The notes under the pieces were generated by a model. That model was not told the DNA's origin. It saw nothing but the letters and a program-made list of their open reading frames with translations, and made no database searches. Below are positions 4,185-56,094 of a stretch of DNA of 64,000 nt, piece by piece. Position numbers and translations under genes: made by a program. The stretch lies in the IMG/VR virus record IMGVR_UViG_3300027754_000044, one strand, 5' to 3'. The DNA is from a virus. Each line of letters starts with the position of its first letter. Positions within the stretch are counted from its first letter, which is position 1.

Positions 4185-5019
4185 TGAACGGCTGCGACAA
4201 TCTGATCGACCCGTGAATTGCTTGACGGATTACTGTATTAGATACCTCTCCGCGAGCGTGGAATCCAAACGTGTTAGCGATCACTAATGTATTCGCTTTG
4301 ACTGGATATGCTTTACATTCTGGATCGAATCCCATCTCAATTAATTCTTCATCGAATACTCGTAGAGATCCCTCTGCATGACCATATGTTCTTCGTGGAT
4401 CTACTTTACCATCAATAATATCTTCCCACTGTTTTCGCATCCATTCTTTTCTTTTATCTGTAAGAATATTAGATCCAGCCACATAGCAGAACGGACCGTC
4501 CTTTATCGTCACATCTTGAGGAAAGAACCAAAATTTAACAGTCGGGAAAAATGTGTCCATGTGCATCACTTTCTGCACATCATTATTATCTGGGCTATTC
4601 TGGAGACGCTGAACGAATGTATTTTGTTTGAATTGTGGGTCTAGAGTAGGTAGAGCGTGACAATCCTTGACAATATAATATAGATCCGCAATATCAGAAT
4701 ACCACCGAGTATCGAATTTTTGGCGGCCAGTTTCATCAAATAGTAGATTATGTTCGTTCTTATTTTCAGCGATAGGATACTTTTCAATCTCCTCCACAAA
4801 TCCGGTCATATCGCTCATGAAATTCGAAATGATTACAATTCCTCGTTCATCAAACTCTTTAGAATATAAAGTTTTGTATCCATGTTTCGCTCTGCGTTGT
4901 TGTTGAGCTTCATACGCTCTTTCAGCTCGTTCAATATGCATATCAGGAACGAATCCTTGTAGCTTGTCTGCAGATTTAGCAGAGCTCTTGAATATACTCT
5001 CAAGTTCTTTTATCTTCAT
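4177..5019 (-). CDS. PhyH-family Fe(II)/2OG dioxygenase
   Basis: HMD...DGPFCYVAGS...GFHARG facial-triad pattern. Confidence 0.8.
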   Translation of the reverse strand: MKIKELESIFKSSAKSADKLQGFVPDMHIERAERAYEAQQQRRAKHGYKTLYSKEFDERGIVIISNFMSDMTGFVEEIEKYPIAENKNEHNLLFDETGRQKFDTRWYSDIADLYYIVKDCHALPTLDPQFKQNTFVQRLQNSPDNNDVQKVMHMDTFFPTVKFWFFPQDVTIKDGPFCYVAGSNILTDKRKEWMRKQWEDIIDGKVDPRRTYGHAEGSLRVFDEELIEMGFDPECKAYPVKANTLVIANTFGFHARGEVSNTVIRQAIHGSIRLSQPFNV

Positions 5020-5028
5020 AGCAACACC

Positions 5029-5733
5029 TCAAATAATAGACACATTCGGACAGAATTTCATGGCCTCTCTGAGGAATAGGAAATCTCCAGCAGATGCAGG
5101 ATACTCTCCATCACACATATCTTCATTCATAAAGATCATTTTCTTGGTCGGATTAAACACAAGCATGCTCATGATGAATGCAGATGGAGCAGCATAGATG
5201 ATAGGAGAATTATACATATCGATCCAGTCATCAATATCCAATTCGTTTTTGCTGATCTGATGATCTGGAGATACGCTTTTGGCTTTCTCTTTATCATCTG
5301 TGTATATCATCGCGTTAGATCCAGCCATAGCTAGAAGTTTTCTGCAAGATTCAACAGATGCTACATTTTTATCGTTTCCTCTGATATGAACTGCAACAGA
5401 TTTACCATCAGAGAATGGGAAGATGTTCTCGATCATATCTGTTCTGGGAACAAGAAACTTGAATATGTTTTCTCTGTTCTCAAATATAGAAGTTGCTGCA
5501 CCCTCAACCCAATATGGCGTTTTCTCTTTGCAATCTATATCTACAACTCTGCATCTAGCATCAAATACGTGATGGAGTTTATTGGATAATCTATCAGACG
5601 AAAGAACTTCAGTCTTTTCATTGTTGATACAGATAACACAATCGTCTGGATCTTTATCAGACTCTTTAGATAATCCTACTGCTACTTGAAGAATCTGAAC
5701 ACCCATTAATCCTCTTACATGGATTCTGCTCAT
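5029..5733 (-). CDS. GT11-like (alpha-1,2-fucosyl/colitosyl) transferase, divergent
   Basis: RGLMGVQILQ (cf. GGLGNQMFQ), VAVHIRGND (cf. VHIRRGD), YTDD, PSAF (cf. NSTF). Confidence 0.6.
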   Translation of the reverse strand: MSRIHVRGLMGVQILQVAVGLSKESDKDPDDCVICINNEKTEVLSSDRLSNKLHHVFDARCRVVDIDCKEKTPYWVEGAATSIFENRENIFKFLVPRTDMIENIFPFSDGKSVAVHIRGNDKNVASVESCRKLLAMAGSNAMIYTDDKEKAKSVSPDHQISKNELDIDDWIDMYNSPIIYAAPSAFIMSMLVFNPTKKMIFMNEDMCDGEYPASAGDFLFLREAMKFCPNVSII

Positions 5734-5936
5734 TTGGCAAACAGATCAAGTTGTTGTGCAAATATAGCTGGGCGAGGAGTATTATTTTGCATTACAGTAA
5801 GAATATTTTTGATCTGTTCCATCTCATCAAATGTTAGACGCACACTAGCGTCTTTGGTAGCTACATCTAGTTTATGTATTAGAGTAGAGACATCCACAGG
5901 CAGTAGTTTCTGTATATCAGATCTTTTATTATTCAT
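5730..5936 (-). CDS. hypothetical protein
   Basis: ORF track; operon packing. Confidence 0.55.
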   Translation of the reverse strand: MNNKRSDIQKLLPVDVSTLIHKLDVATKDASVRLTFDEMEQIKNILTVMQNNTPRPAIFAQQLDLFAK

Positions 5937-5946
5937 GATTAATCCC

Positions 5947-6327
5947 TTAGTGAGTGTCCATGATGTAAAACTGAATATCTTCTGAGATATGGCGTGGCAT
6001 GACTTGTGCTATTTTATCCAATAGCTCAAAGTTTCTGCATTTTTTTGAGAGGAGAGAAGCGCATGCAACCAACACGAGATCAGTGTTTCGTTCAGCCATA
6101 AACTGAACGATCTTATCACCTTTAGTGATGTGGAATTTATACAGAAGACTTTCTGCATACTCTCCGATCTCATCTACGATCAGTTTTCGATCTGCATCAA
6201 TCTCATTATATACGTTTTGGTATTTGCATACATTTATTACATCTTCTGAGCAAATCCAATGACGAAGGATTTCTGCTGGTTTATCGTATGTTCTGTAGAT
6301 GTGTTCACTTACTTTATCTGATAGCAT
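5947..6327 (-). CDS. hypothetical protein
   Basis: ORF track; operon packing. Confidence 0.6.
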   Translation of the reverse strand: MLSDKVSEHIYRTYDKPAEILRHWICSEDVINVCKYQNVYNEIDADRKLIVDEIGEYAESLLYKFHITKGDKIVQFMAERNTDLVLVACASLLSKKCRNFELLDKIAQVMPRHISEDIQFYIMDTH

Positions 6328-6506
6328 ATTTTATTCACAAAGTGATTGGCTTTTTTTTCACCTTCAAAAAAGCCAATTCGAGTTTCCTCAGTTATAGAAT
6401 TGAGCATAACGACTAATATATGCCCCTTCATTATAGAACAACGAACGAACCAATCTTCTACAAGAACTGTATCTAATGAGTGAATTGGAAGTTTAGCTGT
6501 TTTCAT
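6309..6506 (-). CDS. hypothetical protein
   Basis: ORF track; late-like AATAAATA just upstream. Confidence 0.55.
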   Translation of the reverse strand: MKTAKLPIHSLDTVLVEDWFVRCSIMKGHILVVMLNSITEETRIGFFEGEKKANHFVNKICYQIK

Positions 6507-6533
6507 AATGTTATTTATTAACTCAATTTCATA

Positions 6534-7877
6534 TCAACCGAAGAACTCATCTAAGTCTGAGGCTGTTTGAAAATGATCTTCGAATATCTTTCTACCATTT
6601 CTAGGTATGGCTGGATCGTGATTCGTTTTTATTCTAAGTTCAGTAAGATATCCCGTTTTCTTACCTATGGCTAAATCGATGTAATGTTGTGCGATCACTT
6701 TTTGATCAAATTGTTCAATCAATTCATAGTTATTTTGTTGCATCTGTTTATAATCAGCTTCAGACATATCACAAAAGTTAGAGATCGCTTCGCCATATTG
6801 TTTCGGTGTATAATCTTTCTTCAACATGCAATAGTGAGTGCCAGCCTTTAAAACAGCACCGATACCCTCTGCATTGTTGGAAACTCCGAAATTAACTGCA
6901 ATGGGCACAGTGCCAATGCGCATTGCATCAATGACTACTCTATTGAAATGCTCACCAAAAGTGTTAGACCAAGAAGGATCAACAAGAAATTTACAAGTTG
7001 CAAGAATTTTATCACGCTTTGCTCCAGAGATAAAACCAAGATATTTAAAATTGCCAGATGTTTCTGCATTTTCCCAGATACGTTTTCCCTGACGTTTTTC
7101 AGTTACATTTGGATCATACTGAGATGTAGCATAATATTCTTCTTTACACTTATCCTTCGACATCATATAAGCAGCTTCGATACCAGCGCCACCAACAAGA
7201 GTTTCGACTTCAGGCATGTAAGGCACAGCACGAATCAAATCATCGACACGTTTCCAACGCTTGAATGTTTGAATAGATAGGATTTTCTTCTCACGTTGAG
7301 CATAAGATGGTGTTTCAGGAATACCAGAGATATCCTGTGGATTTAAAATTAAAGCACGAGGAACATCCATAAAATCAGCTGAATCATAAGCAGCCGGATG
7401 CACACACGCGAGACCTGTAAAATATTTCTCATATATCTGAATCCATGGATACATTTTCTTCAGATTCGCATCGTGAATGATTGGAATTTGTTTAGCTGTT
7501 ACCTTCTCGATCATAGGCAACCACTCTAATGATTTTTCAGTGTCTTTGTTTTTAAAACCAAAAATAGACTGCCAAATGATCAAATCGTGTTTGTTGGCAT
7601 CTTCAACAAATTTATCAATAGATTCTTTGACTTTATAAGAATAATATGGCGCAATCCAACCAAGGCCTTGATGAACTGGATAGCCAGTTCCAATACCAAT
7701 TTCATAACCTTCCTTCAAGTCGATTGGAATTTCAACAGGACGAACTGCTTTATTACCTTTAAGATATGCAAAAGTTACTTCATGACCAAGTTCTTTCAAT
7801 CCTGCTATAAGATGCTCACAGTGATTGATAATGCCACCAAAGTTATTGAATGTATGCACAACCATCATAATTTTCAT
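6534..7877 (-). CDS. GT-B fold glycosyltransferase, candidate DNA hydroxymethylpyrimidine glycosyltransferase
   Basis: N-terminal FGGI...LKELGHEV, KRWKRVD, EHFNRVVIDAM (GT4-like ExFxxxxxEAM); 4-nt overlap with the JBP/TET gene. Confidence 0.75.
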   Translation of the reverse strand: MKIMMVVHTFNNFGGIINHCEHLIAGLKELGHEVTFAYLKGNKAVRPVEIPIDLKEGYEIGIGTGYPVHQGLGWIAPYYSYKVKESIDKFVEDANKHDLIIWQSIFGFKNKDTEKSLEWLPMIEKVTAKQIPIIHDANLKKMYPWIQIYEKYFTGLACVHPAAYDSADFMDVPRALILNPQDISGIPETPSYAQREKKILSIQTFKRWKRVDDLIRAVPYMPEVETLVGGAGIEAAYMMSKDKCKEEYYATSQYDPNVTEKRQGKRIWENAETSGNFKYLGFISGAKRDKILATCKFLVDPSWSNTFGEHFNRVVIDAMRIGTVPIAVNFGVSNNAEGIGAVLKAGTHYCMLKKDYTPKQYGEAISNFCDMSEADYKQMQQNNYELIEQFDQKVIAQHYIDLAIGKKTGYLTELRIKTNHDPAIPRNGRKIFEDHFQTASDLDEFFG

Positions 7878-44320: not shown

Positions 44321-44736
44321 GGTCTTGGCCTTTTCACGATAACTTTTTGTATGGTATTTGCAGAGTCCGAAATTGATTGTAGTTTCAGCTCACAATAAGT
44401 TTTGTTGACTTCTTTTGCGGTATCATATCTTTTATATAGATCATCGACAAGGATGAATAGAGAATCTGTCATCTTTATTGTCGATGAATTATTCGGAAGA
44501 TTTCCACTGAAGCCCTTTAGCTGACTAGATAATGAAAAAAGTTTTACCGCTGAAGTTTTCGCAGCTTCGTGGTTTGCACAGTTTCTTTTTGAAAATTCAG
44601 AATAGACTTTAATCTTATTGACTAGTAAATGCTCATTAGTATCGTATGGTGCCATAAAATATGAATCATAAAAATTGGATATAGTCGCACATCCGCTCAA
44701 AGAAAAAATAAGTATGATTGATGTTAACAGTTTCAT
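44317..44736 (-). CDS. lipoprotein
   Basis: MKLLTSIILIFSLSGC lipobox. Confidence 0.75.
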   Translation of the reverse strand: MKLLTSIILIFSLSGCATISNFYDSYFMAPYDTNEHLLVNKIKVYSEFSKRNCANHEAAKTSAVKLFSLSSQLKGFSGNLPNNSSTIKMTDSLFILVDDLYKRYDTAKEVNKTYCELKLQSISDSANTIQKVIVKRPRP

Positions 44737-45020
44737 TAGCAATTCCATTTTCTCAGGGCAAGAGCTTTACGACTTGGCTCGCCATTTGGCTTTGTCATCG
44801 GACCATCTACACCACCCATACGAGCGCAGAAAGACTTTCTCCGGTTAGCAGCTTTGCTTCCAGCTTTTAATTCTGAAGGAGGAGTTGTGACTGGTGCTTT
44901 TAGATTCCCACCAGATTTGTTGTTATAATAGTCACGACCCTTTTGGGTTAAACCACCAGTAGAGCTCTTATGCCCTTTGGCGTCGACTGCTGCTTCTGAA
45001 AATTCTTTGAAGGATTTCAT
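44736..45020 (-). CDS. DUF6321-like basic protein with capsid-targeting-like N-terminus
   Basis: MKSFKEFSE; GGLT.KGR, RRKSFCARMGG, LALRKWNC. Confidence 0.8.
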   Translation of the reverse strand: MKSFKEFSEAAVDAKGHKSSTGGLTQKGRDYYNNKSGGNLKAPVTTPPSELKAGSKAANRRKSFCARMGGVDGPMTKPNGEPSRKALALRKWNC

Positions 45021-45187
45021 TTGGCTGCAGCTTTTAAATTCGCAGCGGTAGGTGCACCTTTACTTCCAGGTTTGCGCATACGCTCACCAGAGCCACTCGC
45101 GATTCTTTTTCGTTTAGCATGGATATTATCCCACAATCCACGTTTGCCTTCTTCCATTTGTTCTAAGAATTTTTTAAATTTTTTCAT
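45017..45187 (-). CDS. 56-aa basic protein with capsid-targeting-like N-terminus
   Basis: Hand-translated MKKFKKFLEQMEEGKRGLWDNIHAKRKRIASGSGERMRKPGSKGAPTAANLKAAAK; start/stop overlaps on both sides. Confidence 0.75.
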   Translation of the reverse strand: MKKFKKFLEQMEEGKRGLWDNIHAKRKRIASGSGERMRKPGSKGAPTAANLKAAAK

Positions 45188-45609
45188 TATTCTTCATCCT
45201 CTTTATGACTTCTTATGTGACGCCAAATTCTATTACCACCATCATCGGGATGGTGACGTTCATTATCTTTATTATGAAAGAGATGAGCATTATTTACAGA
45301 ACGCTTATAAAAATCAAACTGAACCATTCTTCTAATCTCGGTTCCGTCTTTTTTCTTTTGTGGATCAACTGGTGCTGCTAGAACATGCTCATGACCATTT
45401 GAATCACGATGATATTGATACCCAGCATGCGAAACATTGTTAAAATACTCCCGATGAAATGGATGTTTAGCCATAGATCTTATCTTCGAACGTCCGATGT
45501 GCTTTAGCAATTCATCTGAGGTGATCGTCTTGGTATGAACTGGTTTATCCATAACAAGTGTCCGCCGAGATTTAAATTCTTCATTTAAAAATTCTTTGAA
45601 ATTTTTCAT
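45187..45609 (-). CDS. His-rich basic protein with capsid-targeting-like N-terminus
   Basis: MKNFKEFLNEE. Confidence 0.75.
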   Translation of the reverse strand: MKNFKEFLNEEFKSRRTLVMDKPVHTKTITSDELLKHIGRSKIRSMAKHPFHREYFNNVSHAGYQYHRDSNGHEHVLAAPVDPQKKKDGTEIRRMVQFDFYKRSVNNAHLFHNKDNERHHPDDGGNRIWRHIRSHKEDEE

Positions 45610-48483: not shown

Positions 48484-48491
48484 TATTTATA
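48484..48491 (-). promoter_or_regulatory. T4-type late promoter
   Basis: TATAAATA. Confidence 0.75.
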
Positions 48492-48498
48492 AACTTTA

Positions 48499-49302
48499 TT
48501 AGTATTGTGCTTTGAGTTTACCTTTAATCTTCTCATAAGATTTCGTATTGAACCGTCTCGCCATGGTTCCTTGTGGACCACTTTTACGTTTTGGTTCTGG
48601 TTTTTTCATGTCGGCTGCAGTTTCATCTTCACCTTCTGGATCTTTATAGTCTGCGCCATAAGATTTACCAACAACTTTTCGTATGTTGCTTTTTGGAGCT
48701 TCTTTTTGTTTTGATCCAAATCCATATTTGTCCATAACCGAATCAACTTCACGACGGCTTTGAGCGCCGGATTTCATTGGCGCTTCATCCATCTGTTCGA
48801 CTTCTTCTTTCTTAAGATTAGAATGAAATTTAGTGTTTACTACACTTTTCAAAAAGTTATGAGCACCTTCGCCACCCTTACTTCTACCATAGGGAACTTT
48901 TTTACCATGAAGATCTGCATCGTAGAAATGACCACCATAATCATTATAATGATGAAGAATATTACCTACCTTTTTGTCGTTGTGATGAACTTCATAATGT
49001 TTTTCAATAGCCTTTACTGGTTCGTCTTGATCATCAGTAACATCTTTCGGATGAGTCGTCTTGGTCAATTTCAGTTTATAGCCATGTGCTGCTGCTTCAT
49101 CTATTTGTTCTTCTTCTTTCAACTTAGGCTTTGTATCGACGGTATCTTTCTTAGCGCGCAGAGAAGCAAAATCTGTCTTTTCTAGCTTACCATCTTTATC
49201 GACGTCCAATTTCTTCTGACCGCCTACAAGAGCTTCTTCGACAGCTTTTCTTACCGCATCGATAAGTGAATTGGATAATCCGTAATTTACTGTTGGTTTC
49301 AT
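48499..49302 (-). CDS. probable internal head protein with EEQIDE/EEVEQMDE linkers
   Basis: VEEALVGGQKKLDVDKDGKL..DF..LR; two linkers; start reassigned to MKPTVNY with SD AAGGAG. Confidence 0.7.
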   Translation of the reverse strand: MKPTVNYGLSNSLIDAVRKAVEEALVGGQKKLDVDKDGKLEKTDFASLRAKKDTVDTKPKLKEEEQIDEAAAHGYKLKLTKTTHPKDVTDDQDEPVKAIEKHYEVHHNDKKVGNILHHYNDYGGHFYDADLHGKKVPYGRSKGGEGAHNFLKSVVNTKFHSNLKKEEVEQMDEAPMKSGAQSRREVDSVMDKYGFGSKQKEAPKSNIRKVVGKSYGADYKDPEGEDETAADMKKPEPKRKSGPQGTMARRFNTKSYEKIKGKLKAQY

Positions 49303-49303
49303 A

Positions 49304-49567
49304 TTATTCTCCTTTTGAAATTTCTTGAATGGATTCAAGAAGATCATCAGCTTCTTCGTCTGAGATATCCAAGTCGAAGGACTCTTTCATCTTCTTCTGC
49401 ATTGCTCTACGAGCTAGGGCTTTAGCAGCATCCATCCCTGTTCTATTTTTGTTATTCGCTTTCTTAAAAGAAGATTTTTCATCTGGTTCAAATGGAGGAT
49501 CGTCTTTTTTATGTGATTCTGTTACAACTGATCGTATAACTGAAGCGAGTGTCTTGTAAGTTTGCAT
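49304..49567 (-). CDS. small probable head-associated protein
   Basis: MQTYKTL...VTE; DPPFEPD motif. Confidence 0.65.
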   Translation of the reverse strand: MQTYKTLASVIRSVVTESHKKDDPPFEPDEKSSFKKANNKNRTGMDAAKALARRAMQKKMKESFDLDISDEEADDLLESIQEISKGE

Positions 49568-49571
49568 TTTC

Positions 49572-52500
49572 TTATTCCTTATCTTGTGAACTTAATTTTG
49601 CAGCAATGGCCATTTGACGTCTTTTTTCGACACTCTTACCTTTAAACTGAGGCGCATCTGATTTTTTAAAATCTTTAATTACATCGCCCATATCAGCAGT
49701 ATTCATATTTAGTATCTCTTGGCATTGTCCAGGTGTTTCTCTTGCGTAATTTTTCGTAAGTTCTGGAGTTCCAAACTCACCAGCTCCACCCTCTTCAGAC
49801 ACAGCTTTTTCTTTCCTTAATTTATGATAACCTTCGCTGCTATTAACTGTACCGCCAGTCTTTTCGGCATGTGCTTTAGCACCTTCGCGCGTTTTGAATA
49901 TTTTTGGATCGGTAAATTCTTTATGTGATATCCAAGAACCAAGGGGATCAGCTTTTGCTTCCGTCACACCTTGTTTTTTTCTAGCACGAACGATCTTGAA
50001 CTCATCATCGCTATCACGCATATTTGCATCAAGAGCATCCTCCGCGTCTTGGCGACCGCGATGCGGGCTTACAATTTTTCCTGTAGTAGTGTTCTTGATG
50101 AAATGTGTTGTGTCGTTTGTGGCACCCAGGTCTGCATACTTGGACACGTTGGTTTCCGCCACACCTTGCTTCTTTTCTTTCTCAGCTTTTTCCTGCTCCG
50201 CGTTATGTCTTGCTAAAGCATCATCGGTCATCTTTTTACGAATAGCCATTTGTTGTATTTTTTTAGCTAAGATTTTATGTGCATTGGATTCTTTAAGATG
50301 ATTACCTACGCCACCCAGAGCTTCAATCTGATCTTTATGCTTATGATACATCTTAGCGTGATGATTTTTTGTCGCTTCTAGTTTAGATTTCTTAGCAACG
50401 TGATATCCTTTAAGGTGAAACTCCATAGCAGAAAGGTGGTCATCTACAGATGTGTCTTTATGCATGAACTTTCTTCCCTTGCCACGACCACCTTGAATCG
50501 TTAGAAGATGATCACCTCTAGCCTCGTGTATTTCTGGAACATACATTTCGATTTCGAATATAGAATCTGCATCTACATCTTCTTTCATACCTTGCTTATT
50601 TTCTTTTGATGCAAGAGCTTTATGCTTCTTGTGTCGTTGAAGGTAATGATTAGCCATAACGCCATTGCCTTGGCTAGTTGCAGCAATATATGCTTTGTGA
50701 GCTAAAGCAGCTAATTCAGAATGACTAGCAACTTCGTCGATCTGTTCTTCTTTTACATCTTGGAGCAGAGATGTTTTACTCACTTTAGGTGCAGGCGAAG
50801 TATTTTCAAAATCTTTTTCAACATATTGATGGTCATGAACTTTATAACCTTGTTTCTTATAATGATTAATTGCAGTATCTATAGCATGTTCACGATCTTT
50901 TGCTGTTACTGAAGCACGTCTTTGCATTGTTTCTTTACGCTTAGAAACCATAGTGTGATTTGGATCAGATATAGTTACATTAACTAAATGTTTTTCGTCA
51001 ATCTGATCGACTTCTTCTCTACGAACATCATAGTGCTGGTCTCCAGTGTATGCACGACGACCAAGTCCACTTCGATCTTTCCGTAATCCAGCAGCGGCTT
51101 TGTTTCTTTCATCTTCAGAACCTGGTGTTCCTTTTGTAGCGATCTTTCTATTCAGCTTTGGATATCCGACTAAAGCGGAAACAGCACGCAATGGTGCTTC
51201 GTCCATCTGTTCGACTTCTTCGTCTTGAACCCCAGTTTCTCTGCGATCATTTCTCCACACAATCCTACCATCTGGAAGACGAACCTTAACACGATTAACA
51301 TCAGCACTTCTCTGAACTTCATCCATCTGTTCGACTTGCTCTTTGATGTGTGCAATATAATCATAGTCGTCCATAGTCAATATACCTTTGTTGCGAATAT
51401 TGATTAATTTTTCTACAACTTTATGCAAATCCATATCACTCTTTAAATCTTCGCGAGCTAATTCCAGAACACGAATCAACAGAGGGATATCCATTACTAC
51501 TGAATCCTTCTCGTTGACAGCTTCCTGTTGATTTGCTAAAAATGAATTGACTGCATCAAAAGCGACGCTTTCATTTCCAGAATCTTTAAGAGCATCTTCA
51601 TAAACTTCAACGACGGCATCTATAGAAACATTATACTTTACTGATTTGTTGTATAGACTCTCTGCAATTTTATCTTCAGCCAAAGGATCATATTGATCCT
51701 TCATCTTTTCTCTAAGCGATGCAAAAGTTTTAGATTCGTGTTGACGAATCATTTTCTTACGCAAAGTCAAATGACCTTCTTCGGGAGTCGGATCCATTTT
51801 ATTAATTTTAAGTGGATCTACTTCAAGGGGGTCGTTTTCAAGAGGATCTTTTGAAATATTTTTTTCCTCATTCTGTGGATTCTTTTTAAGAACTACCATA
51901 GCACGTATCCTAGCGAATGTTTGTGGGTCATCTGTAGCCATCTTTAAAATCTTATCTAACATTGAAAGAATTTTACTGCGCAATTCTGGTGACGATAAAG
52001 CCTTTTCACCAATCTTAAGAGCGCGACGGTATTTTTCGATTTCATCTTGATCAACTAGACCAAGACGAAGAAGCATATTAACTTTTGGTGTCAGTAGATG
52101 ATCGTTGTTAGTTGAAATATAATCTGGATCTTCTTTAACATCATAAGACTGATATAAAGATTTTGACTGTGCTGGCATAGTTACATTTTGCCCCCGCGCT
52201 TTGGCAAGACGTGTCATTTCCTTCTTACGAATCATCGGAAGAGTTCTCTTGGATAATGTTCCGACTAGTTTATCTAGATTTTTTCCATATCTTGCCTGCA
52301 CAGCTTTATCTATAGCATATCTTTGCGATGGTGGAAGTTTGTGATATGACAAACCTTTTTGTCCAGCAATACGTTTACGCAGCATCATAAGCGCAGATGT
52401 TCTAGCGCGATAAGTTAATCTCTGAGGAGTAGCCATACGTTTGCGTTTCAGTTCGCGCATTCTTTTCATGCGTGGCTGACGCTGTTTGAATTTCATTTTT

Positions 52501-53342
52501 GCTCTTTGGCGCTGCAGGATCGAAAGAACGCGGCTCTCATCTAGATCTTCTTCGATAGATTCTCCGACCAACGTTTCTATGAAGTCAGAATCATTTTCAT
52601 TTGGATCTAAATCACTGAAACTTGTTTGATCAACAACATTCCAAAGCTCTGCATCTGAAAATGATTCACTATCTTCAATCATAAATTTTTCGAATAGATT
52701 GTCCAATGATTCCATTTCTAACCCCTCATTCTTTTTAGTCTTTTGTCCGTTTCTAACATCGTTCATTAAGTCTTTGGTATGCGAATCAGAAACATGAGAA
52801 GGAACGCCTTTACGGAATTCTTTGAAATTACCAGAAGCTGCATGTTCGCGTTGCTTGGTTGCGCTAACGCCGGATGTGCCCTCTGCATCTGGATCTCTTT
52901 CCCCAGCAGAATGAATTGTTATCTTTTTAAATTTGTAATATCCGTGACCTGCTTTTTTACCATTATAAGCATTCGTCAATTTACTCATCTCATCGTGGCG
53001 ATCAGACCCAGCAACGATATGAGCGTGCGTAACTCCAGCTTTGTGCAATGATGAAAGATGATGAAGAATCGTTGGATGTTCTTTAGACGAAGCAACGACA
53101 TTAGTTTCTGATGAAAATCTTTTAAGATGTTTCTTTTTCTGATCAGAAGATAACGGATTCTTTTTAGGATCCTGTGAATGCGACACAACAACTGAATGAT
53201 CTGCACTATGATCTTTTGCGACTGCATGAACCTTGTCAATCAACTGCATATGTCCTGTTGTTGGAGGATTCATACGCGTGAATGCAGTCACATGATGTTG
53301 ATCTGCTTTAGTTGATTCTGATAATTGAAAAAGTGTTTTCAT
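49572..53342 (-). CDS. cytidylyltransferase-like N-terminal domain + modular linker-separated C-terminal region (putative polyprotein)
   Basis: FTRMNPPTTGH, KNPL, VAGSDR, SAGERDPDAEG..GVSATK.R; repeated EEVEQMDE/EEQIDE/KKQGVxE linkers. Confidence 0.8.
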   Translation of the reverse strand: MKTLFQLSESTKADQHHVTAFTRMNPPTTGHMQLIDKVHAVAKDHSADHSVVVSHSQDPKKNPLSSDQKKKHLKRFSSETNVVASSKEHPTILHHLSSLHKAGVTHAHIVAGSDRHDEMSKLTNAYNGKKAGHGYYKFKKITIHSAGERDPDAEGTSGVSATKQREHAASGNFKEFRKGVPSHVSDSHTKDLMNDVRNGQKTKKNEGLEMESLDNLFEKFMIEDSESFSDAELWNVVDQTSFSDLDPNENDSDFIETLVGESIEEDLDESRVLSILQRQRAKMKFKQRQPRMKRMRELKRKRMATPQRLTYRARTSALMMLRKRIAGQKGLSYHKLPPSQRYAIDKAVQARYGKNLDKLVGTLSKRTLPMIRKKEMTRLAKARGQNVTMPAQSKSLYQSYDVKEDPDYISTNNDHLLTPKVNMLLRLGLVDQDEIEKYRRALKIGEKALSSPELRSKILSMLDKILKMATDDPQTFARIRAMVVLKKNPQNEEKNISKDPLENDPLEVDPLKINKMDPTPEEGHLTLRKKMIRQHESKTFASLREKMKDQYDPLAEDKIAESLYNKSVKYNVSIDAVVEVYEDALKDSGNESVAFDAVNSFLANQQEAVNEKDSVVMDIPLLIRVLELAREDLKSDMDLHKVVEKLINIRNKGILTMDDYDYIAHIKEQVEQMDEVQRSADVNRVKVRLPDGRIVWRNDRRETGVQDEEVEQMDEAPLRAVSALVGYPKLNRKIATKGTPGSEDERNKAAAGLRKDRSGLGRRAYTGDQHYDVRREEVDQIDEKHLVNVTISDPNHTMVSKRKETMQRRASVTAKDREHAIDTAINHYKKQGYKVHDHQYVEKDFENTSPAPKVSKTSLLQDVKEEQIDEVASHSELAALAHKAYIAATSQGNGVMANHYLQRHKKHKALASKENKQGMKEDVDADSIFEIEMYVPEIHEARGDHLLTIQGGRGKGRKFMHKDTSVDDHLSAMEFHLKGYHVAKKSKLEATKNHHAKMYHKHKDQIEALGGVGNHLKESNAHKILAKKIQQMAIRKKMTDDALARHNAEQEKAEKEKKQGVAETNVSKYADLGATNDTTHFIKNTTTGKIVSPHRGRQDAEDALDANMRDSDDEFKIVRARKKQGVTEAKADPLGSWISHKEFTDPKIFKTREGAKAHAEKTGGTVNSSEGYHKLRKEKAVSEEGGAGEFGTPELTKNYARETPGQCQEILNMNTADMGDVIKDFKKSDAPQFKGKSVEKRRQMAIAAKLSSQDKE

Positions 53343-54478
53343 TTCTTTTTAAACTTATCAGATGCTTTTAAATTGGCTGCTGAGAATCCTGCACGATCAA
53401 CAACCTTAAGTCCATTCGCTACATAGCCTTCACCACCGCTTTTGTTTCCTTCGATGGAAGTTTGGAATGGGTGTTTGGATGCAGCATCTAATCCTCTAGC
53501 TAAATGATTAGTAGCTTGTTGAACGTGATGGTGAATATTAAAGGAACGTTGAAACGCACCTTTATGCTTATCTACGTGTGATAGAGAATTATTTTTCTCA
53601 TCGGTTTTAATAGCCTTTGTTTTTTCCATCTTAACTGCAGCGATCTGCTTATCGTGATGAGCAGCCAGGTGAGCTTTATATGCTGGGACGCTAGGAGTTT
53701 CTCCGGAACGAACAGTTGAGTTTATGTATGTTCTTAGATGACCTTCATGACCAGCCAGATGACCATATGTGTGATCCTTCATTAACTTCTCAGCTTCTTT
53801 AACGTGATGGTCTACAGCTTTTTGATGTTCTGGTGATAACTTGCGCTCATCTTTTCCAACGATGTGATCTACCTGATGCACGTCTGGATGACTACCAAAA
53901 CCTTTGGCTTCAGTAATAGAAATCGACTCGGTAATAGGATGAGCACGACCTTCTGCATCTATTTTTGTATGAATGACTGTGCTTACTTTAGATTTCTTAA
54001 GTTTCTTACCTTCTTCAGATTTAGCATCAGTTTCGTATTTTAGAGTGTTTGGTGTATGTGAAATCTTTCCACCAGATGTAGCTCTTGTTTCTGGAGTGCT
54101 CATAAAGCCGCCCTGATATTCGCCATGACCTTTTGGAAGAACTTTTCCAACGTGGCTCAGAAGAGCATGAAGCGGATGAGCAAGATATGGCTTATGACCA
54201 TGTTGCTTATCAATATCTGAATGAGAGAAATTGTAATGTGATCCTGCGCCCTTGTATTTAACTCCAACGCGACCATTTTTATCTCGAATCGCTTGATAAG
54301 ACATCTTATCGTCGATCTTACGGGTGATTGGAGTTTTACCTGAAGCCACGCTCTTGATAGTATTGAGAGCGTGATGAGCAGCGTCCGGACCGTCGAATGT
54401 TCGATCGGATGGGTGCTCTATATGTGATATTCCTCGCTGTTGTGCTGCTTCAGCGAGGAAACTAGTAAATCTTAGCAT
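53339..54478 (-). CDS. DUF6267-like His-rich protein with capsid-targeting-like N-terminus
   Basis: MLRFTSFLAE; HIEHP.D, TRKIDD, YQG, PNTLKY, EGYV...LKVVDR..FS.AN. Confidence 0.75.
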   Translation of the reverse strand: MLRFTSFLAEAAQQRGISHIEHPSDRTFDGPDAAHHALNTIKSVASGKTPITRKIDDKMSYQAIRDKNGRVGVKYKGAGSHYNFSHSDIDKQHGHKPYLAHPLHALLSHVGKVLPKGHGEYQGGFMSTPETRATSGGKISHTPNTLKYETDAKSEEGKKLKKSKVSTVIHTKIDAEGRAHPITESISITEAKGFGSHPDVHQVDHIVGKDERKLSPEHQKAVDHHVKEAEKLMKDHTYGHLAGHEGHLRTYINSTVRSGETPSVPAYKAHLAAHHDKQIAAVKMEKTKAIKTDEKNNSLSHVDKHKGAFQRSFNIHHHVQQATNHLARGLDAASKHPFQTSIEGNKSGGEGYVANGLKVVDRAGFSAANLKASDKFKKK

Positions 54479-54531: not shown

Positions 54532-54539
54532 TATTTATA
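54532..54539 (-). promoter_or_regulatory. T4-type late promoter
   Basis: TATAAATA. Confidence 0.75.
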
Positions 54540-55469: not shown

Positions 55470-56081
55470 CTATCCTCCGTATCTAGTAATCGAACCATTC
55501 TCGTGTATCAAGAATGCTTCGAAATTAACTTTTGGAAATTCTCTTTTGAGCGCAAGGAATGATTGGAGATTTTTTACAGCGTCATCAAACATTCTTGCAA
55601 CTGTATAATTTCCTTTTTGTAGATACTCAGAAGTGATCTGTGCTTTTGCAGCAGGACCAGGAAGATCTCTATTACCCGCACGTTCAACATGAACACGATT
55701 AATATCGAATCCATATTTTTTAAATGTAGCTAGGAATAGTTTTTTATCATCTAGATCAGCTCTAGCTGTGATGATAATGATTTTTTTCTGAGGACTGTCT
55801 CTGAATTTACTCAGCATCTTCTTTGCTGTTTTAAATACAGTATCGACAGGACGCGCAGTGGCGTTGAATACTTCAGCCGAACGAAACTCGGAGAAGTCGA
55901 ATTCTTCTCCAGATTTTAATTTGTAGACATTAAATTCTGCTGGTGTTAATGTTCTAACACGTCTATCACCTTTTACAACGAACACTTTGGTTGTTGTATG
56001 GAAAAGTGTATCGTCTATGTCAAAAATAGAAAGCGAACTTGCTCTCATATCTTCTGCGATGAATTCTGTGAATTTTAACAT
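55470..56081 (-). CDS. HAD-superfamily phosphatase-like protein with capsid-targeting-like N-terminus
   Basis: MLKFTEFIAE; FDIDDTL, ITAR, K, MFDD. Confidence 0.85.
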   Translation of the reverse strand: MLKFTEFIAEDMRASSLSIFDIDDTLFHTTTKVFVVKGDRRVRTLTPAEFNVYKLKSGEEFDFSEFRSAEVFNATARPVDTVFKTAKKMLSKFRDSPQKKIIIITARADLDDKKLFLATFKKYGFDINRVHVERAGNRDLPGPAAKAQITSEYLQKGNYTVARMFDDAVKNLQSFLALKREFPKVNFEAFLIHENGSITRYGG

Positions 56082-56086
56082 ACACT

Positions 56087-56094
56087 TATTTATA
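56087..56094 (-). promoter_or_regulatory. T4-type late promoter
   Basis: TATAAATA 5 nt before the ATG. Confidence 0.65.

Follow-up and report, generated by a model that had tools for sequence, protein, structure and literature searches.

Genes at the locus

The window, by which we mean the whole stretch of 64,000 nucleotides that was analysed, comes from an uncultured T4-like water phage (a T4-like myovirus). It contains a long modular open reading frame (ORF) of 1256 amino acids (49572..53342, minus strand, as are all genes, modules and linkers given below) and a short modular ORF (48499..49347), listed with 282 amino acids, although most relatives start instead at MKPT, position 49302. The preliminary description of this DNA had reported both ORFs, nine linker peptides and two DNA matches between linkers, and all of these are found at the positions claimed. 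The long protein is made up of a leader (MKTLFQLSE), a nucleotidyltransferase (NTase) domain (residues 10-215), an acidic stretch (residues 216-269) and, beyond it, some 13 more modules with Glu-ended linkers between them. The short protein comprises three modules and two linkers, and its N-terminal module contains an EF-hand-like loop.

Both genes belong to an operon with the order DUF6267 gene, long ORF, 87-aa ORF, short ORF. The DUF6267 protein (53339..54478) starts with MLRFTSFLAE, which resembles the capsid-targeting leader (CTS) of T4, and the stop of its gene and the start of the long ORF overlap. The 87-aa ORF (49304..49567) starts with MQTYKTL (compare MKTYQEF in the T4 CTS), and the relative P0147 has the homolog of this ORF joined in frame to the short ORF. 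A T4 late-promoter-like box, TATAAATA, lies 54 nt upstream of the operon (54532..54539, minus strand). Boxes of this kind are found upstream of this operon and of two neighbouring ones; one (56087-56094) is next to the gene (55470..56081) for a HAD-type phosphatase-like protein, which also has a CTS-like start, MLKFTEFIAE. Three small genes (44736..45609) also have CTS-like starts (MKNFKEFLNE, MKKFKKFLEQ and MKSFKEFSEA); in another relative (L011), the modules of the 56-aa and 94-aa small genes are fused in frame within one 869-aa protein. The window genes are situated between gp41 and gp61 (helicase and primase), that is, in the replication gene region. None of the 64,000 nt of the window encodes head genes, and so the protease discussed below is deduced from relatives.

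Linker peptides and linker DNA

In the long protein, the linkers IKEQVEQMDE (residue 666; KEQVEQMDE is 51318..51344), DEEVEQMDE (residue 707; 51198..51224), REEVDQIDE (residue 775; 50994..51020), VKEEQIDE (residue 863; 50733..50756) and KQGMKE (residue 916; 50580..50597) come after modules D, VQR, APL, KHL and VAS, respectively. A second class, QGV[AT]E, is represented by KKQGVAE (residue 1057; 50154..50174) and KKQGVTE (residue 1122; 49959..49979), which bracket the 58-aa module TNV. The short protein contains LKEEEQIDE (residue 76; 49096..49122) and KEEVEQMDE (residue 180; 48784..48810). As had been claimed, linker DNA is near-identical across the two genes: positions 48778-48807 and 51192-51221 agree at 28/30, and 48783-48803 is the same as 51317-51337 (21/21).

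A six-frame scan of the whole window gave six occurrences of Q[MILV]DE in real ORFs, all within the long and short genes, and a seventh in a frame broken by stops; Q[MI]DE is absent from every other real ORF of the window. The linker Val codon is GTC in four of four cases (usage in the window's genes, 15-18%) and the linker Gln codon is CAG in five of six (usage, 37%); thus, linker copies within this genome have more in common than the peptide. Across phages, the octapeptide EEVEQMDE is present in 59 IMG/VR contigs, 66 times in all; the modules on either side of it are unrelated and its synonymous codons differ, so selection acts on the peptide itself. The residue that follows it is Ala in 30 of the 66 occurrences; T4 gp21 was originally described as cleaving a Glu-Ala bond.

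Module turnover among relatives

Sixteen close orthologs retain an N-terminal core of NTase, acidic, basicA, B and C modules, and across the same sixteen the modules D, VQR, APL and KHL appear in nearly every order, number and combination. The ortholog alignment, which had been proposed as a check, is not colinear: modules are gained, lost, duplicated and re-ordered exactly at linkers. Module TNV, for example, is missing from several orthologs. Module APL (51021..51197), part of the long gene in the window, belongs to the short gene of two relatives, L001 and L002; DNA identities to those short-gene copies are 95.1% (L001) and 89.2% (L002). Identity is mosaic: KHL is 100% identical to L002, and basicA is 79% identical to L002 versus 99% to L001. 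At the junction between D and KHL in L002, every base of the 5' half agrees with linker 1 of the window and every base of the 3' half with linker 3; a further two junctions fall in common AAAGAAG and GAAGAAGT-type microhomology. Turnover and chimeric junctions together strongly support the earlier proposal of an in-frame cassette array in which the linkers serve as recombination joints.

The roughly 13 modules besides the NTase domain occur independently in other proteins. Most are basic, and none has a recognisable function. Module D (51345..51521), a predicted four-helix unit of 60 aa, is 65-78% identical across very different proteins and is carried by 1,864 protein clusters, some of whose members also hold ART-PolyVal, N6_Mtase and Eco57I domains.

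Putative cleavage motifs and leaders

The T4 prohead protease gp21 cuts after L/I-x-E (PMC9026906, PMC8442874). Among 64 non-redundant contexts upstream of module starts, [ILVM]-x-E is the ending in 37 (58%; background 2.3%) and Glu in 49 (background 8.2%); because such motifs had served to define the module starts of the window protein in the first place, the count of 37 is biased. In an independent set of 128 module D instances, non-redundant at 50% identity, [ILVMF]-x-E precedes 65 and Glu precedes 86. The Glu persists even where P3 is not hydrophobic, so it could be part of the domain itself and not of a cleavage site. The long protein has 31 [ILVM]-x-E sites against about 20 expected, which makes that motif alone weak evidence, and T4 gp21 itself leaves some such sites uncut. 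Overall, the motif statistics would fit cleavage of the linkers by a gp21-type protease.

In the T4 CTS (MKTYQEFIAE), residues 4 and 7 are needed for targeting and residues 8 and 10 for processing (PMC9026906, PMC8442874). The long protein's leader, MKTLFQLSE, is only a loose fit to this pattern; strict fits among the neighbouring genes are MLKFTEFIAE, MKNFKEFLNE and MLRFTSFLAE, and the short ORF has a different conserved leader, MKPT. Within the window, CTS-like leaders cluster solely in this block. Such starts are present in just 29 of 230 proteins that share modules, and thus other leader classes exist. Stand-alone D genes begin with MITFKQYLE, MKTFKQHITE or MKSFKSFIT and stand-alone DUF6321-like genes with MKTYKQLQE or MLKFKDLME, and internal copies of the same modules come after x-[ILV]-x-E. 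Judged from these starts, leader and linker are interchangeable in front of modules.

These observations bear on whether the protein is cut at all. It could be packaged yet remain whole, like a polyvalent protein, and perhaps be injected as one chain; the linkers would then be flexible spacers as well as recombination joints, and hydrophobic-x-Glu would reflect composition. Many-domain polyvalent proteins are common in phages, some are packaged unprocessed (e.g. the N4 virion RNA polymerase; PMC5512222), and module D is found in proteins with ART-PolyVal and N6-methylase domains. However, the same modules exist as separate genes with leaders that match the T4 CTS, which gp21 removes; the P1 Glu and hydrophobic P3 are kept while the remaining upstream context varies; the octapeptide is conserved as protein despite its different codons; and the phage family has a protease of exactly this specificity. 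We regard an uncut protein as rather unlikely.

The C-terminal module and the head-gene slot

The long protein ends in GGAGEFGTPEL and a DUF6321-like module (49575..49790). Among the 79 best loci with homologs of this C-terminal module, 38 are in the slot between portal and prohead protease, the position of gp68, and 26 are in the NTase locus. One complete relative (G002) encodes a gp21 protease (PF03420, Peptidase_S77, E 2.8e-42) and, between its portal and gp67-like genes and gp21, a 152-aa protein in which a leader and the window's C-terminal module are joined through an EEVEQTDE linker to the EF-hand-like module that the short gene also carries. The window genes themselves, lying between gp41 and gp61, are not at the gp68 position (portal/gp67 to gp21). 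Alignment of the C-terminal module profile with T4 gp68 by hhalign covered 19 columns with 47% identity (E 0.016, probability 2.9%), which is not significant; locally, the two resemble each other weakly over a KRRQ[IM]A stretch.

The slot homologs and this weak resemblance would suit a prohead core or scaffold accessory comparable to T4 gp22, gp67 and gp68. The T4 core proteins are cleaved into many fragments that leave the head, and here too the pieces would mostly exit before DNA packaging; the modules would be assembly parts, and only the enzyme might stay. Yet modules turn over fast among close relatives, an unusual behaviour for components of an assembly apparatus; most modules are basic, like the internal proteins that T4 keeps with its DNA; and peptides of the syntenic S-SM1 proteins are present in mature virions (see below). 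We therefore think a core role improbable.

The nucleotidyltransferase domain and published virion proteomes

The N-terminal region, a CTS-like leader with a cytidylyltransferase/NMNAT-like domain (52698..53342), is matched by PHROG 3041 (E 8e-53) and PHROG 395 (E 1e-41), so that the cytidylyltransferase-like domain of the preliminary description is real. Pfam PF01467 scores 18.7 bits on it, under the 21-bit cut-off. The translation contains TTGH and SATKQR, motifs of the (H/T)xGH and ISxTxxR types, and sequence search found no solved structure for the domain.

Its counterpart in the cyanophage S-SM1, SSM1_190 (T4-GC190), is 39% identical (E 2e-35), starts with MKKFSAFLNE and is likewise encoded between gp41 and gp61. 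This cytidyltransferase was detected in S-SM1 virions with 25 peptides, as were the neighbouring clusters GC1453, 1454 and 1455 (SSM1_188, 191 and 192) (PMC3037559 Table S8); the genes of the detected proteins make up the syntenic gp41-gp61 locus. The S-CREM2 virion also holds its cytidylyltransferase (PMC10665884). In the virion proteomes of S-PM2 and Syn9, the cytidyltransferase was not detected.

These last two proteomes, together with the location in the replication region, could point to a cytoplasmic, non-virion multidomain protein of nucleotide metabolism or associated with replication, with the detections of homologs in virions explained as contamination. Such an account would have to dismiss two independent virion proteomes, one with 25 peptides, and three proteins from neighbouring genes. 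It also sits poorly with the late-promoter-like boxes, the confinement of CTS-like leaders to this block of the window and the modules in common with the head-gene slot, and we consider it very improbable.

Comparison with known systems

The closest parallels are the T4 internal proteins (IPI, IPII and IPIII) and Alt. The phage is T4-like, and gp21 (Peptidase_S77) is found in a relative; the short leaders resemble MKTYQEFIAE, with aromatic or hydrophobic residues at 4 and 7 and a terminal hydrophobic-x-Glu; the bodies are basic and the genes highly polymorphic among relatives; and, as with Alt, an enzyme is carried as cargo. Unlike the T4 internal proteins, which are separate genes with a single leader each, many cargo units are chained here in one frame, the cutting motif is repeated internally, and the locus is among replication genes. 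In PHROG and Pfam scans, neither the proteins nor the modules matched a family of IPI, IPII, IPIII or Alt; since the T4 internal proteins are themselves polymorphic, this absence of homology is a weak feature.

The polyvalent proteins of phages and conjugative elements (Iyer, Burroughs, Anand, de Souza and Aravind 2017; PMC5512222) likewise unite many unrelated domains in a single chain predicted to accompany the DNA, and they are extremely mosaic; module D is common to the present proteins and those with ART-PolyVal and N6-methylase domains. Those authors propose that a metallopeptidase domain of the polyvalent protein itself does the processing; PHROG and Pfam scans found no peptidase family in the long or short protein, where there are instead repeated putative sites for a separate prohead protease. 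ART-PolyVal, DarB-like methylase/helicase, MuF and other polyvalent signature domains are absent from the window proteins. That paper makes no mention of linkers, prohead-protease sites or cyanophages.

With T4 gp67 and gp68, core proteins that gp21 cleaves at several sites, the locus shares the placing of C-terminal module homologs between portal or gp67-like genes and gp21 in many relatives; unlike gp68, the window module forms the end of a 1256-aa protein whose gene lies in another part of the genome. The inner-body or ejection proteins of the giant phages phiKZ, 201phi2-1 and SPN3US are head-internal; a prohead protease related to that of T4 processes them after Glu at a short motif, in some of them at several sites, and leader sequences recur among paralogs (PMC5694885). 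They differ in their A/S-x-E motif and long propeptides, and in-frame arrays of exchangeable modules have not been described for them. The published T4-GC190 cytidylyltransferases of cyanophages (S-SM1 and S-CREM2; 190-460 aa) were reported just as virion-detected, and neither account (PMC3037559, PMC10665884) discusses leader, linkers or cassette structure.

Proposed explanation

The reading that we favour, and hold to be somewhat probable, is a late-expressed polyprotein packaged in the head and cut by a gp21-type protease at linkers that double as in-frame recombination joints. The leaders, the late-promoter-like boxes, the slot homologs and the virion mass spectrometry of homologous and syntenic proteins in S-SM1 and S-CREM2 support packaging of the window polyprotein indirectly. 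Both cargo genes would be transcribed late, in one operon with the DUF6267 protein, and uptake of the polyprotein into the prohead core would depend on a short T4-like capsid-targeting leader, on the C-terminal DUF6321-like module or on the two together. The protease would then cleave after Glu at hydrophobic-x-Glu sites, concentrated in the repeated linkers EEVEQ[MI]DE, QGV[AT]E and V-x-E-E, and free the nucleotidyltransferase together with roughly a dozen small modules, most of them basic. The freed products would stay on the DNA and probably accompany it into the host, where one might imagine them as injected effectors.

Recombination between the short, DNA-similar linkers would delete, duplicate, re-order and transfer modules in frame, and may do so inside one gene, from gene to gene and from phage to phage. 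Because modules are swapped, lost and duplicated exactly at the linkers, the locus gives the impression of a protein set that is packed into the phage head and rapidly reshuffled.

Genes and linkers in the window

The window carries part of an uncultured T4-like myovirus, with genes for gp43 DNA polymerase, UvsX, gp41 helicase, gp61 primase, NrdA/B and ligase; no head genes are found in its 64 kb, and a megablast search with 20 kb of it returned no match among cultured phages. The long open reading frame (ORF; 49572-53342, 1256 aa) and the short ORF (48499-49347, 282 aa) are both present on the minus strand as the preliminary description had them, and all of the Glu-ended peptides that it quoted as linkers between modules were found where it placed them. 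The linker DNA matches that it reported between the two genes were reproduced as well (28/30 and 21/21). When the whole 64 kb was scanned in six frames, Q[MILV]DE was found six times in real ORFs, in the two modular genes only. The N-terminal 215 residues of the long protein form a cytidylyltransferase/NMNAT-like (NTase) domain (PHROG 3041, E 8e-53), in which TTGH and SATKQR motifs are present and the Pfam score falls just under the cut-off. It is followed by an acidic stretch and by further modules that include basicA, B, C, D, VQR, APL, KHL and VAS and, at the C-terminus, a DUF6321-like module. Sequence searches of the PDB with the NTase domain and with the adjacent DUF6267 protein (53339-54478) gave no match.

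Between the two modular genes lies an 87-aa ORF (49304-49567, start MQTYKTL), the end of which coincides with the start of the short ORF (49302-49347) in another frame. In a related protein (P0147), the two form a single 366-aa chain; the arrangement in the window reflects a genuine split of the gene or else a frameshift.

Three intergenic late-promoter-like TATAAATA boxes, identified by consensus match only, lie on the coding (minus) strand at 48484-48491, 54532-54539 and 56087-56094. They share the extension (A/G)TATTATAAATA and head three tightly packed minus-strand operons spanning 44.3-56.1 kb. One box precedes the DUF6267 gene by 54 nt, and this gene is the first in an operon that continues with the long, 87-aa and short ORFs; the others are found just upstream of a HAD phosphatase gene (55470-56081) and 65 nt upstream of a gene for a 248-aa protein.

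Module turnover between relatives

Modules were mapped by searching with each one separately; gapped BLAST alignments bridge absent modules. The cassette array suggested in the preliminary description was checked for colinearity in two close IMG/VR relatives, L001 and L002 (85-90% protein identity), and the orthologs proved not to be colinear: long and short genes differ by whole modules. L002 is without VQR, APL and VAS, L001 has VQR twice, and APL is located in the long gene of the window and in the short gene of both relatives. The APL DNA of the window is 95.1% identical to that in the short gene of L001, not below the 88-99% of flanking orthologous genes, and thus its move is recent. Identity between the window and L002 swings from 100% in KHL down to 79% in basicA, the mark of a mosaic at the scale of modules. 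More widely, modules were found to be shared by 115 long proteins in a search of 5.8 billion proteins. Of these, 16 keep the core at the N-terminus (NTase, acidic stretch, basicA, B and C), and among the 16, D, VQR, APL and KHL occur in nearly all orders and numbers.

Linker junctions

The junction between D and KHL in L002 combines the 5' half of the first linker of the window with the 3' half of the third, and the crossover falls within the common GTCGA.CAGAT. Two other junctions fall in 7-8 nt of common sequence at Glu-ended linkers. Within the window, unusual codons are common to the linkers (GTC for Val, 4/4; CAG for Gln, 5/6). Across phages, the exact peptide EEVEQMDE occurs 66 times on 59 IMG/VR contigs, between unrelated modules, with Ala as the next residue in 30 of the 66 and Ile in 16, and its synonymous codons vary freely. 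Selection therefore acts on the peptide itself, and DNA-level descent alone was rejected as the explanation of linker conservation. It is conceivable, and we put this forward tentatively, that the acidic linker of about eight residues is under selection for two purposes, the peptide as a prohead-protease site and the DNA as an in-frame recombination joint, with a cassette system as the result.

Linkers and leaders as candidate protease sites

The T4 prohead protease gp21 cuts after Glu in L/I-x-E, and the T4 capsid-targeting sequence (CTS) is the 10-residue MKTYQEFIAE, with residues 4 and 7 used in targeting and 8 and 10 in processing (PMC9026906, PMC8442874). In other proteins, [ILVM]-x-E closes 37 of 64 non-redundant contexts just upstream of module starts, against a background of 2.3%, and Glu is the last residue in 49 of 64 (background 8.2%); these counts are to be read with the caveat that module borders were first set with such motifs in the window protein. 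For module D, which 1,864 protein clusters carry, 128 instances made non-redundant at 50% identity were compared; [ILVMF]-x-E precedes the module in 65 of them and Glu in 86.

Copies of D or of the C-terminal module that open a small gene of their own follow a CTS-like leader (e.g. MITFKQYLE, MKTFKQHITE, MKTYKQLQE or MLKFKDLME), and internal copies come after x-[ILV]-x-E. Two genes of the window with CTS-like leaders (94 aa and 56 aa) correspond to internal modules of a single 869-aa protein in the relative L011. Many D-bearing proteins (P0162-P0235; L004:8684-9958) share a second class of leader (MSRAQLLKSLIK and MDSKAQKLKAIVK are examples), after which DPWS...YLKSRGINP...HSK..F..WK units recur; these leaders may be another targeting signal.

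Our preferred reading, which we consider probable, is that the two modular genes encode late-made, head-packaged polyproteins and that a gp21-type protease cuts the linkers, which double as in-frame recombination joints. An unlikely alternative is a polyvalent protein that is packaged and stays uncut. One feature of the motif counts calls for care: Glu is kept before D even when the hydrophobic P3 residue is missing, and so it may belong to the domain. In T4, processing is blocked when Asp stands at the cleavage position. Processing has been proposed for polyvalent proteins by a metallopeptidase acting in cis (PMC5512222), whereas we propose a separate gp21-type protease; the polyvalent-protein paper mentions neither linkers nor cyanophages.

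Link to head genes and virions

A complete relative (G002, 171.6 kb) encodes a gp21-type protease. Between its portal and gp67-like genes and gp21, the position of gp68 in T4, it encodes a 152-aa protein made up of a CTS-like leader, the C-terminal module of the window, a linker (EEVEQTDE) and the EF-hand-like module found in the short gene; no PHROG family was found for this protein. The C-terminal module is present at at least 576 IMG/VR loci; among the best 79, 38 are in the head slot between portal and gp21, and 26 in the NTase/gp41-gp61 locus. Another explanation drawn from the head slot is that these proteins are core or scaffold accessories and their fragments leave the head; we regard it as unlikely.

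The C-terminal module was also considered as a homolog of T4 gp68. Residues 91-109 of gp68 (NAFQTTGLSKAKRRQIARK; L104:2524-2949) are 47% identical to the DUF6321-like core DAPQFKGKS.EKRRQMAIA (alignment A1), and the KRRQ[IM]A stretch is suggestive by eye; the match is too short to be significant. In the cultured Synechococcus phage Sf-CH8 (L018, 70349-71557), the gene of a 402-aa DUF6321 protein has the two terminase subunit genes, small and large, on either side of it and also neighbors that of a 'virion structural protein'. The terminase region is a third genomic site of the module.

This locus is also present in cultured cyanophages for which virion mass spectra are in the literature. P-TIM68 and SynMITS9220M01 encode a long modular protein beside the cytidyltransferase; in SynMITS9220M01 it is divided over two ORFs. 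In S-SM1 virions, the cytidyltransferase T4-GC190 was detected with 25 peptides, and three gene clusters, 1453, 1454 and 1455, were detected as well (main text and Table S8 of PMC3037559). We find these genes to be SSM1_188, 190, 191 and 192, which together make up the syntenic gp41-gp61 block; the SSM1_190 protein shares 39% identity with the N-terminal domain of the long protein and starts with MKKFSAFLNE. S-CREM2 virions contain their own cytidylyltransferase, and according to the authors cyanophage virions often contain such enzymes (PMC10665884). In view of these virion detections, a cytoplasmic protein is very improbable. The cited papers, including the S-SM1 and S-CREM2 proteomes (PMC3037559, PMC10665884), do not mention leaders, linkers or cassettes. 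In the literature searched, the linker peptides VEQMDE, VEQIDE and EQIDEA were not found, and "capsid targeting sequence" and "cyanophage" appear together in one T4 review only.

Module functions and neighboring enzymes

Ten modules were scanned one by one against Pfam (E up to 1), and no match rose above the cut-off. Weak matches were EF-hand/dockerin-like for the module that opens the short ORF (below cut-off, E 0.006-0.07) and DpnD/PcfM for KHL (E 0.0012). Residues 16-84 of the short ORF (49096-49302; L016:9856-10314) include DVDKDGKLEKTDF, DANKNGKVDGHDF in G002; by sequence fit, the DVDKDGKLEKTDF motif agrees with a 12-residue EF-hand calcium loop at all liganding positions. The AlphaFold model of D has four helices (pLDDT 79), and a Foldseek search with it against the PDB gave no match with E below 7. 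D also occurs inside giant proteins of 1477-2136 aa (P0056, P0059, P0063 and P0071) that carry ART-PolyVal, N6 DNA methylase/Eco57I, DUF5824, DUF6496 and DNA polymerase III beta domains; judged by domain content, these are classical polyvalent-protein architectures.

The DUF6267 protein contains KIDD at the place of KYDGS in the L004 homolog, which resembles ligase motif I (KxDG). Its neighbors are a HAD phosphatase with DxDxT and the NTase; CTS-like leaders are present on both flanking proteins. At the L004 locus (4284-5492 and 5489-7378), a kinase-like domain with a P-loop (GGPGSGKD) is joined to the NTase in one protein. In its motifs, this set resembles a packaged nucleic-acid end-repair kit.

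Implications

The T4-like phages that live in lakes and oceans rank with the most abundant viruses, and a role has yet to be assigned to most of their variable genes. Under the tentative reading of the linkers as dual-purpose elements, aquatic T4-like phages would run a system of cassettes, similar to exon shuffling, for proteins delivered by the head. Hundreds of small effector modules would be combined and exchanged between genes and between phages, and also between the genome locations described above, head-gene slot and NTase locus. If this is true, modular proteins now called "hypothetical", a large class, could be read as head cargo, with leader and linker motifs in the sequence serving to predict the cargo units, and in-frame exchange of cassettes at protease-site linkers would be a simple route to diversify the cargo that accompanies the DNA. 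Such exchange of delivered proteins would bear on the search for counter-defence proteins.
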